Origin: a virus
Lineage: Duplodnaviria > Caudoviricetes
Direction: 5' to 3' (one strand)
IMG/VR virus record: IMGVR_UViG_2974555739_000001
Location: 16,149-80,148 of that record
DNA length: 64,000 nt
The position numbers and the translations under genes were made by a program. Numbering within the stretch: position 1 is the stretch's first letter; each line of letters opens with the position of its first letter. This document shows positions 3,717-63,988 of this stretch, piece by piece. The notes below the pieces were generated by a model. It was not told the DNA's origin. It saw only the letters and a list, made by a program, of their open reading frames with translations, and did no database searches.

Positions 3717-4235
3717 ATGACTTCATATTTATATGATGATGGTAATGGTCTTCGCACATCTGCTCGTGTCGAACCAACAACAGGGAAACCAATTACAGAC
3801 GTTTCTAACATGGTTAAAACTAAAAGTGGTTTATGGATACCACAAACAGGTACAGAAGATGGTGCTGCAAACGTTCAAGTAGCAGGATCAGACATTATGA
3901 TGCCAACACATTTACAACGTCAATTAACTCCACAAGATAAAGTAGCGACTGCTTTTTCTGTAGGTGCTGGATCGACTCAAACTGTATTTGTTGCTGATTT
4001 TGATGGTTTTGCTAATTTTGGCGTTATGTCTGTTCCTACCGCTTCTCACGATTATAACCTTTCTGTTTTCTGTAGTCCTGATGGAAATACATTAGTTGAA
4101 AGAAATATGAAGAGTGGTACAGGGTGGGGCAAATCATTAACAGGTGCTTCAGTAGGAGCGTTCGTTATGATCCAAATTACCAACAATAGCGGTTCTGCTG
4201 CAAATTATGATATTTGGTTAAGAAAATTTAATTAA
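3717..4235 (+). CDS. Minor structural/tail accessory protein
   Basis: 172 aa, beta-rich C-terminus, in the tail region; strong RBS. Confidence 0.5.
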   Translation: MTSYLYDDGNGLRTSARVEPTTGKPITDVSNMVKTKSGLWIPQTGTEDGAANVQVAGSDIMMPTHLQRQLTPQDKVATAFSVGAGSTQTVFVADFDGFANFGVMSVPTASHDYNLSVFCSPDGNTLVERNMKSGTGWGKSLTGASVGAFVMIQITNNSGSAANYDIWLRKFN

Positions 4236-51925: not shown

Positions 51926-52837
51926 TTAAATACCGTCTGTAAACTTTTCTAATTTATCATGTAGTTTTCTTTCGCTATCAACATAATTACGATAAGTCAC
52001 CGAAACGTCAGAATGACCTAGCATTTCACTAACGAAACTAATTTCTAAACCACTTTCAATTAATTCGGTAGCTCTTGTTTTTCTGAAAATGTGACTACTC
52101 AAGTTTTCAATGCCTGTTCTACTAGCTAAATTGTCCAGGATTTGATTGATACGTCTAGTTGATAAAGGCTTTTTAGTTCGATTTGATTCTAAAATATATT
52201 CAGAATTCCAAGTACGTCCTTCTTTCATTTCCATCAAGCGTTCATATGTTTTTTCGCTGATTAGTACAGTTCTTCTTTTTGACATACCACCTTTACCCTT
52301 ACCTAAAACAGTTAAGATATAACGACCAAAATCATTATCTAAATCACTCCATTTAGCATTCACAAGTTCACTTACACGAAGACCTCCATCAAAAAGAACT
52401 CTCACTATACATTCTTCCAAAAGATCATCAGAAACAAAAACTAACGTTTTGATTTCGGCTTTAGAAAGTGACTTTACTTTCTTTTTATTTTTAGCTGGTA
52501 AATAGCTACTCAATTCCTTTTTATCGATGAATGGAGCTTTCTTCATGCGTCCAGTACGGTTTAAGAACGAAAGGAACTCATTTGTGCTTACCGCTTTACG
52601 TTCGATTGTAGCAGCTGATGTATATTTGTGTTTAAGGTGATCGATGAAGTTAAGAAAATCTTCCTTCTCGAAGTTATTGATGTTCATATCTACATCGTTC
52701 TGTTCCATATAAGTAACGAACTGATTAACGTCCGAAATGTAATTGATAACTGTATTAGCTGATTTGTTGCGACCTAACTCCTTTTCAAAAAGATCGATGT
52801 AGTGATTTAACGTTTTAACATTGTTGTATTTAGCCAT
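51926..52837 (-). CDS. Tyrosine recombinase (XerC/D or integrase family)
   Basis: SAM-like N-terminus; GLRVSEL (R), GKG (K), SHIFRKT (HxxR), LGHSDVSVTYRNY (H/Y). Confidence 0.9.
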   Translation of the reverse strand: MAKYNNVKTLNHYIDLFEKELGRNKSANTVINYISDVNQFVTYMEQNDVDMNINNFEKEDFLNFIDHLKHKYTSAATIERKAVSTNEFLSFLNRTGRMKKAPFIDKKELSSYLPAKNKKKVKSLSKAEIKTLVFVSDDLLEECIVRVLFDGGLRVSELVNAKWSDLDNDFGRYILTVLGKGKGGMSKRRTVLISEKTYERLMEMKEGRTWNSEYILESNRTKKPLSTRRINQILDNLASRTGIENLSSHIFRKTRATELIESGLEISFVSEMLGHSDVSVTYRNYVDSERKLHDKLEKFTDGI

Positions 52838-57374: not shown

Positions 57375-57407
57375 AGACTGTAGGTGTGGAAACCTATGGT
57401 CTTTTTT
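57375..57407 (+). terminator. Rho-independent terminator
   Basis: AGACTGTAGGT-GTGGAA-ACCTATGGTCT-TTTTT. Confidence 0.75.
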
Positions 57408-57468
57408 GTGTCTCAATATTATCTCAAGTGGGTATGATGATGTTAACAAATCACGAGAGGGGTATGAG

Positions 57469-57975
57469 ATGATTATGAAAAATAATTACAAGGTAAAAGG
57501 TGAGGATATTGAAATTTATGTCCAAAGTATCCACGGTGAATTTACTGTTATCATGGATGTCTCTTTTTTAAATACTTTAGAACAAATCTCTTCTATTTCA
57601 ATTAGACAAAGTAGCAAAAAGGAAGATTACTTTACTGCTGTTTTTTATCACGAAGGTGAAGTTGTATTTTTGCATCACCTTGTTTCAGGAAAACCGTTAA
57701 ACGATTTAGTTGTGGATCACATAGACAGAAATCCCCTTAATAACAAAAGTAATAATTTGAGGGTTGTTACAAAGTCGTTTAATTCTATTAATAAATCCGC
57801 TTGCAACAACAGTAAATCAGGTATCCGTGGTGTTTATTGGTGTAAAACAAATAAAAAATGGCGTTGTGAAGCTACATACGAAGGTAAACGTCATCGTTTA
57901 GGTAGATACAGCACGTTAGTTGAAGCTAGAAGAGTGATCCGCAAGTTTTGGGAAGAAAAAGGTATAGTTATATGA
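57469..57975 (+). CDS. HNH homing endonuclease with AP2-like C-terminus
   Basis: LHHLV...VVDHIDRNPLNNKSNNLR; SKSGIRGVYW...KWR. Confidence 0.85.
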   Translation: MIMKNNYKVKGEDIEIYVQSIHGEFTVIMDVSFLNTLEQISSISIRQSSKKEDYFTAVFYHEGEVVFLHHLVSGKPLNDLVVDHIDRNPLNNKSNNLRVVTKSFNSINKSACNNSKSGIRGVYWCKTNKKWRCEATYEGKRHRLGRYSTLVEARRVIRKFWEEKGIVI

Positions 57976-58193
57976 TAGGGGAGGTTATTTTTCTAGCCTT
58001 TCACTTGGAAACTAATATCGAAATAAATCATACTCGTAGGATTTGAGTTAATGAAGTAGGGGTAGTAAAATCTCTAGGCTTTTTCCTGAAAATCAACATC
58101 GAATTAAATCAAAATGACACTTTTTCACCTTCAGTAGATGGGGGCCAATAAATCACTGGACATTTTTTGAAAAACCAAAGTCGAAATAAATCA
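57976..58193. repeat. Three degenerate ~81-82 bp tandem repeats
   Basis: TCGAAWTAAATCA at 58018, 58099 and 58181; T(A/G)GGGG at 57976, 58057 and 58139. Confidence 0.65.
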
Positions 58194-58521: not shown

Positions 58522-58968
58522 ATGTTCAATAGAAATGTGACGATGGATATTATGTGTAAGCGATGCAAAAGAAAAACTGATGCAACAGACTTTCCAGCTC
58601 ATAAAATTGCAATAAAATGTGAATGTGGTGGATGGTTAATCACTCCAACAGGCACGTTTGATGCACAATTAGTTTATCACAAATTCGCATTTTCATTAGC
58701 AAGCAAAAAATTAGTTTCTGTTATCATTTCTGATAGCCTGGAAAATGCTATTGCTTACTTTGAAAATCTTCACAATGAAAAGGTAGATCAAACACATAAG
58801 ATCAATCCTATCAACTATCAAGACATCACGTTCACAAATACAATCAAGAATGAAGAAGGTCATGAGGAAGAAATTGTTGCTGATTTGTGCGATATCATTT
58901 TCAGCTGCAATCAAGACAACTTAGAAGCTGCTCACATGACAATGGACGAATACATCCAACGCTTCTGA
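58522..58968 (+). CDS. Protein with N-terminal Zn finger (CKRC...IAIKCEC)
   Basis: AAGGAG RBS supports ATG at 58522; ORF track 58468..58968. Confidence 0.65.
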   Translation: MFNRNVTMDIMCKRCKRKTDATDFPAHKIAIKCECGGWLITPTGTFDAQLVYHKFAFSLASKKLVSVIISDSLENAIAYFENLHNEKVDQTHKINPINYQDITFTNTIKNEEGHEEEIVADLCDIIFSCNQDNLEAAHMTMDEYIQRF

Positions 58969-59190
58969 CTAGCACCGGCCCTATAGCTCAAAGGTGGTTT
59001 GCCGTTATGCACTAGTCACCGCTGCTCCCTATAGCTCAAAGGCTAGTTTCCGTTATGGCCCTTACAGCTCAACACCACCGCGCCGCTATACAGCTCGACA
59101 GCACCTTTCCGTTATAGTGCCACACGTCACCAGGGCCACACCGCGGCGCGCCTATACAGCTCGAAGGCCATGTTCCGTTATAGGGGCCAA
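58967..59190 (+). repeat. GC-rich array of four imperfect hairpin repeats (candidate structured ncRNA)
   Basis: CTATA(CA)GCTCRAM-loop-TTTG/TTCCGTTATRG units at about 58981, 59028, 59085 and 59151. Confidence 0.7.
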
Positions 59191-59591
59191 TCACTCGTGC
59201 GCGTAACCTATTATGGGCCACCACCTGAAGCGCTTATAGTGTGTGCTCGCTGTTGCTACTATGTGCGCGGTCTGTTATGCTCCATCTGTTCATACACACT
59301 AACCACCACATAACTTTTAGGCTTTTCAGTTTCCTTTGTATCACATTTTTATTTCTTTCGAATATAAAACTATTCAAAACCATAAAAACCTCTTACAAAG
59401 GATTTTAAACAGTCTGAATGATATTAACCTTTTTGTATGCCATAAAACCATAAAACAAAAAGAGCACCAACATATACACTAGGCTTTTCAAATTCGCTTC
59501 TAAACGATCTTAAAAGCTATTTGATACCTAATATATACATTGGCGCTCTAAACGGTTACAAAGGCATTTAAACGCCTTGTAAGAGACAAAT

Positions 59592-59640
59592 AAAAAAGCA
59601 CCAACACACTAACCATTTTTAAGGTTAATATGTTGGTGCT
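59592..59640 (-). terminator. Terminator of the early operon
   Basis: GCACCAACA..TAACC-loop-GGTTA..TGTTGGTGC followed by TTTTTT on the minus strand. Confidence 0.75.
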
Positions 59641-59647
59641 CGCTTAT

Positions 59648-59767
59648 TTATTGGCACTCTTCGAATTCACTCACGTTTTTGCATTTGTTACACTTTACTT
59701 GAATTTTTCCCTTAAACATTCCCAACAACAAAAGGCGTTTACATATCTTACATCTGAATTGCTTCAT
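59648..59767 (-). CDS. 39-aa Com-family Zn-finger protein (MKQFRCKICKRLLLLGMFKGKIQVKCNKCKNVSEFEECQ)
   Basis: Manual translation; RCxxCxxLL...I.VKCxxCK matches the Mu Com pattern; AAAGGCGG RBS; starts 1 nt after the upstream stop. Confidence 0.75.
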   Translation of the reverse strand: MKQFRCKICKRLLLLGMFKGKIQVKCNKCKNVSEFEECQ

Positions 59768-59768
59768 G

Positions 59769-60395
59769 TTATTGGCCGCCTTTCAAAGCTGATGCCATAA
59801 CATAAGAGCCTTTACCGTTTTCAACTAACTTCTCAACTTTTACAAGTTCTAATGTTTCCGCGTCATAAACTGCATTAACGTAGTCACCGTTTTTCAATTC
59901 ATCATTATACATAACTTGTTCTGATGTGAAATAAACGCCGGTGTTAACGTCTGAGCAATTGTTATAGCAAATTCCGTTATATTCGCCGTTTTCAGCGTTT
60001 GTAATTTGGTATGAGCTAAAAACATATTCATCGTTGTAAGGAACATCGCTTGTATCCGCTGTTTTCTTCTGTTTAAGGTGTTTTACATCTGTTACACCTA
60101 TAAACTTATCTTCACCTTTTAAAACGCGGTATTCAGCTTTTACAATATCGCCGATTTTGACATCTTCATCATTCAGAACATCAGAAGGTTCGAACCCTAG
60201 AAAATCTTTATCAGTTCCTTTTCTAACATTCTTAGCAACAAAAATACCATTGTCTTCTTCTTGGACTTTGAACACTTCATAAGCTAATGGGCTTTTTACC
60301 TCTTCTTCTTTCGTGAAATGGTTAAAACCTAATGTAGCAGTTACACCAACAAGAAAACCTACCGGTAATAATAATTTACGTTTGAATTGTTTCAT
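59769..60395 (-). CDS. Membrane-anchored/secreted protein with two internally repeated domains
   Basis: N-terminal hydrophobic segment; repeats F..S.V..D..(V/L)K.GD.V.A.Y. Confidence 0.6.
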   Translation of the reverse strand: MKQFKRKLLLPVGFLVGVTATLGFNHFTKEEEVKSPLAYEVFKVQEEDNGIFVAKNVRKGTDKDFLGFEPSDVLNDEDVKIGDIVKAEYRVLKGEDKFIGVTDVKHLKQKKTADTSDVPYNDEYVFSSYQITNAENGEYNGICYNNCSDVNTGVYFTSEQVMYNDELKNGDYVNAVYDAETLELVKVEKLVENGKGSYVMASALKGGQ

Positions 60396-63410: not shown

Positions 63411-63988
63411 TATTAAAAATATAATGTTCAATTGTACATAGCTTCGACGTATTATAAGCACACGTTGGATAGTTACATGCAAGCCTAAACTGCTGATAAG
63501 AGTCTTCAGCTCGCGCGATCTGTTACCCTAACCGCTGTTATGGCCTAAAAAAATGCTTAAAAAAAGATGTGTAAATGTTGGGCCACATCTAACCTTGTAT
63601 ATGGGCTTCTTATAAGATAACTTATAGGAAATAAGCAGCGTGGCGGGTACTTTACATTGTTTTTCGTAAAATTTGATAAAAACGTTCCGTACTCCCCACT
63701 CCTTCCAACCGGCCATTTTTCCCCTTCGAGTAACTAATTTTTCTCGAATAAATCCCCGAATATTTACGAGTAGTAGCTAATAATAGTCGGATCAGCTACC
63801 AGGGGGGTACTTTTACAAATTAGAAATAATCGACTTTTTCTTGATATATCGCGGTTTATTTAAAATTTTTTGTGACATATAGCGAATAATAGCTTCTTAT
63901 AATTGTTCGGTAAAATAGGTTAATGCATGTAACGAATAAAATGTGTGTATGATGATAGAAATAACTTACTAGGAAAGGATGATCCGGA

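Follow-up and report, generated by a model that had tools for sequence, protein, structure and literature searches.

At the replication origin of phage lambda, four sites for the O protein, each with internal dyad symmetry, lie alongside an AT-rich stretch, and P1 oriR and plasmid oriV are further origins of this kind. In phage T7, SRL and SRR are heptamer arrays tied to the genome ends. The REP/BIME elements of enterobacteria are present in hundreds of dispersed copies that occur in alternating orientations. Among repeated or structured RNAs, ToxI consists of exact head-to-tail repeats of about 34–36 nt that are processed by ToxN, and the put RNAs of HK022 are two stable stem-loops located just 3' of promoters. 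The Com protein of phage Mu is an RNA binder. In phage T5, the injection stop signal region is a repeat region tied to the genome end and to DNA entry (10.1101/866236). We describe here a GC-rich repeat island whose sequence is new and whose kind is ordinary and lineage-specific. We tentatively favor its interpretation as a lineage-specific array of candidate protein-binding DNA sites located beside a conserved AT-rich spacer.

The stretch of DNA that we analyzed (64,000 nucleotides, hereafter the window) corresponds to bases 16149–80148 of a record of 80,148 bp with direct terminal repeats. The phage is a Bacillus megaterium siphophage of the genus Slashvirus, with Staley, Slash, and Stills as sisters, and two metagenome contigs (the JGI relatives) are additional close kin. 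These six genomes formed our comparison set, in which Stills was the most distant of the Slashvirus members compared. Farther kin was found in the “Microcystis phage MaeS” (MT362618.1), whose cyanobacterial host label looks doubtful. MaeS has in common with the Bacillus Slashvirus group a recombinase (57% identity with that of our phage), a Com-like gene, a zinc-ribbon gene, and a SleB-like lysin. The alignment of our phage with Staley, Slash, and Stills dropped to about 0–25% identity over 57400–58100, which points to an insertion there, namely an ORF for an HNH + AP2-domain homing endonuclease (57406–57975, plus strand) that was observed in this phage only.

The sharp GC island in an AT-rich genome announced by the original prediction was confirmed. 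In 200-nt segments, the GC fraction was 0.51–0.57 over 58900–59299 and 0.28–0.41 on either side. In 120-nt segments, it reached 0.61 in the island, the sharpest peak of a genome with 35% GC and the sole strong GC island of the window. Staley likewise exhibited a single strong GC island at this segment length. The island covers ~320 bp, extending to about 59290, and is flanked by convergent genes, with a plus-strand gene (58522–58968) stopping on one side and the terminator of a leftward operon (59641–59596) on the other. With only 32% C against 23% G, a C-rich RNA of the Rho-utilization type was discarded. No ORF over the island was conserved among the phages compared, and in Staley no ORF of at least 25 amino acids covers the units; since the orthologous islands moreover differ by one- and two-base indels, we consider the island as non-coding and a protein-coding island was rejected. 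In this phage only, an ATG located in the second repeat unit after AAAGG opens a 20-codon ORF (59054–59117) that ends at a TAG in the third unit; this ORF is probably meaningless because it is absent in the relatives. Neither tRNA nor tmRNA was detected in the island.

The upstream gene (58522–58968, plus strand) encodes a protein of 148 aa whose N-terminus carries a CxxC...CxC zinc ribbon, and the stop codon of this gene abuts the first unit. This protein matches phrog_19413 (unknown function), and its homologues were restricted to this phage group, plus a 25%-identical protein in MaeS (E 3e-11) whose gene lies directly 5' of the GC-rich island of MaeS. AlphaFold modeled the 148-aa protein with a mean pLDDT of 54, which precluded a structure search. 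On the other side, the leftward operon ends with a gene (59648–59767, minus strand) that encodes a 39-aa Com-like zinc ribbon (PF10122, E 7e-4, below the cut-off) and adjoins the island in the relatives, including MaeS. No recognizable DNA-binding domain was detected in the neighboring proteins with Pfam, PHROGs, and the ESM Atlas. The leftward operon is closed by an intrinsic terminator (59596–59641, minus strand), annotated in Staley and Slash, and an AT-rich spacer (59310–59595, about 29–32% GC) separates this terminator from the island. The spacer is conserved (identity to Stills 0.78–0.91) and contains the repeats ACCAMCAYA..TAGGCTTTTCA at 59318 and 59480, as well as a conserved hairpin at 59556–59582, just inside the leftward terminator. 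A promoter, a small RNA or separate sites for proteins may also reside in this spacer.

The island had been described as an array of four related hairpins. The repeats themselves were recovered, but they extend further than proposed, as we also identified a half unit (2b) and two degenerate units in an island that continues to about 59290. Four 40-nt copies, 65–70% alike, start 48, 59, and 66 nt from one another, and the spacings to the half unit are 26 and 32 nt, for an overall range of 26–66 nt. The core TAYAGCTCRA-N8-TTCCGTTATRG, in which N8 mostly starts with AGGC, is found in five units in a single orientation, to which the two degenerate ones can be added. When the alignment was anchored on GCTC, all units could be aligned without gaps, and the RAAGGC of the supposed “loop” turned out to be largely conserved; the “CA insertion” and the “variable loop” initially reported are thus artefacts of the alignment register. 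The motif TTCCGTTATAG, with at most one mismatch, was found five times for 1.15 expected, and three of these five occurrences are located in the island. A profile built from 13 units matched our phage five times (E 4e-10 to 9e-5, the next best match having an E of 4) and Staley and Stills three times each, always on the plus strand and never outside the array. The copy number is five in this phage vs. three in each of the five relatives.

At the upstream border of the array, the 7-nt inverted repeat TGACTAG/CTAGTCA (58966–58972 and 59012–59018) indeed encloses unit 1, as noticed previously. Its TGA terminates the 148-aa gene, it is not followed by a T-run, and it occupies the place of an intrinsic terminator in Staley, Slash, and the JGI relatives. 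Unit 1 (58981–59010, plus strand, profile E 1.4e-7) and unit 2 (59029–59058, plus strand) were found in this phage only, and they sit at the position of that T-rich terminator. Unit 2 was probably duplicated from unit 2b, since its center AAAGGCTAGT resembles unit 2b of the relatives. In our phage, unit 2b itself (59061–59085, plus strand) is a chimera in which a 5' half unit is fused to the spacer-like CACCACCGCGCCG; in the relatives, it has the full inner motif without a self-complementary stem. Unit 3 (59086–59117, plus strand) was kept in all six genomes. It is followed by the GC-rich spacer motif GGGCCACACCGCGGCGCGCC (59132–59151, plus strand), which represents a second family of direct repeats also present at 59067 and 59215. 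Unit 4 (59152–59183, plus strand) is the best conserved one, with AAGGCCATGTTCCGTTATAGGG invariant in 6/6 genomes and a variable outer 5' arm. The degenerate unit 5, CACTCGTGCGCGTAA..TTATGGGCC (59192–59219, plus strand), contains the block GCTCGTGCGYGT that was again conserved in the six genomes, and it overlaps TATGGGCCACCACCT (59212–59226), of which Staley and Slash carry the exact reverse complement. Finally, a weak degenerate unit 6, GTGCTCG..CTACTATGTGCG (59243–59267, plus strand), was read from the sequence.

The units 3 and 4 were 0.82 identical to those of Stills, compared to 0.78–0.91 for the AT-rich spacer and 0.57–0.75 for the upstream gene. A block of 22 nt in unit 4 exhibited no change across the six genomes. 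Conservation in this unit was linear and not pairwise, the inner motif and the 3' half being invariant and the outer 5' arm reading CTATACA, CCATACA, CC-TACA or CT-ATTA in front of an unchanged 3' arm. The array is therefore probably under constraint at the sequence level, although this conservation is modest evidence since all six genomes are close relatives. The 15-nt stretch at 59212–59226 is inverted in Staley and Slash (near 3805–3825) with respect to our phage and Stills; in the JGI relatives, it has diverged and is oriented as in our phage. The phage-specific units, the chimeric unit 2b, and this inversion suggest that the array evolves by duplication, unequal exchange, and inversion. 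The units are thus conserved as sequence and, judging from the genomes compared, shift in copy number by duplication and unequal exchange at one locus only. At the equivalent position, MaeS has the top GC island of the 20.5-kb region compared, with its own repeats unrelated in sequence, and this island is bordered by the zinc-ribbon homologue and by the Com-like gene. No GC island was present in the 16 kb at the right end of the Basilisk group genomes.

Searches for copies elsewhere recovered essentially this lineage. BLAST retrieved only the sister phages among phages and no match among plasmids, and a specific pattern of the unit gave 0 matches in 185,579 species genomes. When IMG/VR, metagenomes, and genomes were scanned with looser motifs, the matches were Staley and Stills, together with chance matches or unrelated tandem repeats containing the 11-mer. 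Neither 401 Bacillales genomes nor a set of 67 genomes from a single family contained any similarity to the island, Priestia megaterium being perhaps not among them, and host-derived DNA or an attP core was rejected for lack of a match in these two sets. Taken together, these empty searches speak against the ideas that the array mimics ToxI or a CRISPR repeat, belongs to a host REP family, represents an attP core or has copies in prophages.

The pairs proposed for the hairpins were counted on the unit alignment in two possible registers (12 distinct and closely related rows, with low power). About 70% of the cells pair vs. 26–45% when the partners are slid, which indicates a real dyad symmetry of the unit consensus. 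This dyad, the conservation of the units as sequence, their single orientation and single locus, the changes in copy number, the tolerance to inversion, and the turnover observed in MaeS, where the flanking genes have changed as well, all argue for DNA sites rather than for a folded RNA. In particular, copy-number change and the inversion of a sub-segment in two phages are the behavior of repeat DNA, and the presence in MaeS of unrelated repeats at the same place would be expected for sites that co-evolve with their binding protein. The DNA site array, mentioned as a second option in the original prediction, thus fits the data better than the RNA; that the units bind a protein, and which process they serve, we infer. 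The island would be a cis-acting DNA element made of 3 to 6 iteron-like sites in the same orientation for a sequence-specific phage protein, each putative site consisting of the core described above with its loose dyad symmetry. The putative array would be placed in the zone of transcription convergence, with the AT-rich spacer alongside. Two features do not speak for such DNA sites: the spacing of 26–66 nt exhibits no helical phasing, which counts against them, and GC-richness is not needed for protein sites, whereas in AT-rich genomes it classically points to structured RNA.

Among the roles that such sites might play, we would place an iteron-type replication origin first, although we regard it as unlikely, because repeats with internal symmetry adjoin AT-rich DNA as they do in iteron-type origins. 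Iteron arrays have at least three direct repeats in the same orientation and an adjacent AT-rich region; we found five such repeats here and three per relative, all on the plus strand, and 29–32% GC over 59300–59600, slightly below the genome mean of 35%. The array thus resembles iteron origins by its 3–6 same-orientation dyad repeats located by a conserved AT-rich region and by its lineage-specific sequence. It differs from them by longer units (about 30 bp), irregular spacing, GC-richness, and a position outside any initiator gene. It also differs from many of them by the lack of DnaA-box enrichment: with at most one mismatch, 87 boxes were found in the window for 98 expected, and the island contains two one-mismatch boxes. 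No initiator was annotated, and the replication genes are located about 15–30 kb from the island. A link with genome-end recognition or packaging, which we would rank second and consider less probable than an origin, comes next because the only other unit-like motif is located at the physical left end of the genome. Any further role, regulatory or not, we would rank last. If the units do bind a protein as DNA, the island would be an unmapped cis-acting control region (for an origin, end handling or regulation) in Slashvirus, a genus that still lacks a defined origin, packaging signal or lifestyle switch. The conserved trio formed by the zinc-ribbon gene, the GC-rich repeats, and the Com-like gene would then provide two concrete candidate binders. 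The element is limited to one small genus, so that its reach is modest.

A competitor to protein-binding DNA is a plus-strand RNA with weak hairpins, either the 3' UTR of the 148-aa gene or a separate ncRNA, which could bind a protein (the zinc-ribbon or the Com-like one), protect the 3' end of the mRNA or work as a sponge or decoy. The GC-rich island within an AT-rich genome fits such an RNA, as does the nature of the flanking genes, two zinc ribbons of which one is weakly Com-like, in a synteny kept in MaeS. In addition, our phage and Stills (2/6 phages) have no intrinsic terminator between the gene and the array, so that read-through is likely in them, and in the stem of unit 3 three single substitutions all stay paired via G-U, on the plus strand only. 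However, a terminator precedes the array in Staley, Slash, and the JGI relatives, and no sigma-A-like promoter was found in 58969–59900 (a scan restricted to sigma-A-like promoters in a phage that has its own sigma factors). The folding data were not favorable either. Compared to dinucleotide shuffles, the z-scores were +0.57 (plus strand) and +1.22 (minus strand) for the whole island and +0.60, +0.33, +1.45, −0.42, and +0.03 for the units on the plus strand, and the proposed fold was the minimum-energy structure in units 2 and 4 only; the hairpins initially put forward are thus weak. RNAalifold on the orthologues yielded a covariation term close to zero on both strands (+0.06 and −0.06), and the covariation of the proposed pairs did not exceed that of column shuffles in either register (0.131 vs. 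0.146, and 0.163 vs. 0.141, with 75 of 500 shuffles as high). As far as six close relatives can show, the homologues thus exhibit no covariation, the power of this comparison being limited by the close relationship of the six genomes. The 5' arm of unit 4 drifts without compensation (in a JGI relative, T to C creates a C-A on the plus strand), unit 2b is stemless, and a segment of the array is inverted in two phages. A comparison with Rfam gave nothing at the gathering score; up to an E of 10, the matches were at chance level, with a single one on the units (E 9.5), and ToxI was not among them. The RNA decoy or aptamer of the original prediction, analogous to pseudo-ToxI or put RNAs, therefore received no positive support, for we observed no excess of stability, no covariation, no Rfam match, and, in the 185,579 species genomes, no host, CRISPR or ToxI counterpart of the motif, and we consider an RNA of any of these kinds unlikely. 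Should the units be RNA after all, they would represent a new phage RNA-protein module. The more specific proposal of a mimic of a host repeat RNA, either a pseudo-ToxI type III antitoxin or a CRISPR-repeat mimic, relies on the general appearance of the array, with ~32-nt units that recur and exhibit partial dyad symmetry. Short, repeated, and partly self-complementary units in a phage are indeed reminiscent of ToxI, pseudo-ToxI, and put, but those of the array are diverged, spaced, weakly folding, and located at the end of an operon. Considering that units only 65–70% alike are neither head-to-tail nor regularly spaced, and that their pattern is absent from the 185,579 species genomes and from plasmids, we view such a mimic as extremely improbable. 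A CRISPR array or mimic was also rejected as such, the repeats being neither near-identical nor regularly spaced, and the initial statement that the island is neither CRISPR-like nor tRNA-like holds.

Other explanations do not involve RNA. The island could be repeat DNA devoid of sequence-specific function, i.e., a decaying and recombination-prone tandem duplication, possibly of foreign GC-rich origin, that fills the convergence zone. The variable copy number, the chimeric unit, the small inversion, the degenerate units on the 3' side, and the restriction of the array to one genus are all in agreement with this scenario. On the contrary, units 3 and 4 outdo the neighboring coding DNA in conservation vs. 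Stills, the 22-nt block is invariant in 6/6 genomes, MaeS keeps a GC-rich repeat island in place despite sequence turnover, and no foreign source was found among phages, plasmids, species genomes or Bacillales genomes, which makes functionless DNA improbable in our opinion. The array also recalls REP/BIME elements by its GC-rich imperfect palindromes of about 30–35 nt clustered immediately downstream of a gene, where two genes converge; unlike them, its motif is confined to a single locus, always in the same orientation, and was absent from the host genomes that we searched. We also considered that the units could be target or accessory sites of the XerC/D-like tyrosine recombinase (51926–52837, minus strand), for instance for genome resolution or circularization. 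The core sites of tyrosine recombinases have two inverted arms of 11–13 bp about a center of 6–8 bp. The recombinase of our phage (Phage_integrase + SAM_1) is encoded 6 kb from the array and is conserved throughout the relatives, MaeS and the Basilisk group included, the unit is an imperfect inverted repeat about a variable center, and a short segment is inverted in two phages. Yet the array is not next to the recombinase gene, the arms match at about 8/14 positions (by eye), active sites arranged as direct repeats would cause each other's deletion, no attB-like match was found in the host genomes searched, and the Basilisk group has the recombinase without a GC island in the right-end 16 kb, so that we regard recombinase sites as very unlikely. 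Positions 59196–59219 resemble E. coli dif, but this candidate was discarded because their central region is too short. In Basilisk (66965–67798 of the record), an annotated partition protein is located beside the XerD-like recombinase, which hints that, across this broader group of phages, the recombinase serves plasmid-like maintenance or resolution and not integration.

Among DNA-site roles, the link with genome ends calls for a closer comparison. An exact terminal repeat of 497 bp (36% GC) is located at the ends of the record, 4.3 kb from the island, and this excluded that the island itself is the direct terminal repeat or a genome end. In Slash, the genome ends were mapped from raw reads (PMC3861416). 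A weak unit-like bipartite motif, TTCAGCTCG..CCGCTGTTATGG (63505–63543, plus strand, in the right copy of the terminal repeat), corresponds to bases 2–40 of this repeat, which in the left copy are bases 2–40 of the genome, at the physical left end; it is small and GC-rich and is followed by A-tracts. A search with a composite motif (a post-hoc regular expression) retrieved the array and base 5 of the terminal repeat, and nowhere else. By contrast, the PWM-pair score of the terminus (16.5) fell inside the null range (mean 18.7), a Smith–Waterman scan with the terminal 44-mer did not pick the array, and an analogous link between terminus and array was looked for in MaeS and was not demonstrable. 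The array might thus consist of internal terminus-like sites to which the factor acting at the left end (TTCAGCTCG...GTTATGGCC, bases 2–40) would also bind, a scenario to which we assign a low probability. Such an array, which lies 4.3 kb inward of the right end and borders the right-end operon, could act as a pause or anchor for DNA entry (cf. the T5 injection stop signal) or as a distant site for packaging initiation, and it would be new for a Bacillus siphophage. Like the end regions of T5 and T7, the island is untranslated and repeat-rich, lies a few kb from the genome end, and is more conserved than nearby genes; it is also located at the inner border of an operon that the original prediction took as early, and a unit-like motif is present at the physical end of this phage. 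Unlike them, it is separated from the 497-bp terminal repeat by 4.3 kb, has no DnaA-box pairs, and exhibits weak similarity to the terminus. In Stills, AGGTC replaces AGCTC both at the terminus and in unit 4.
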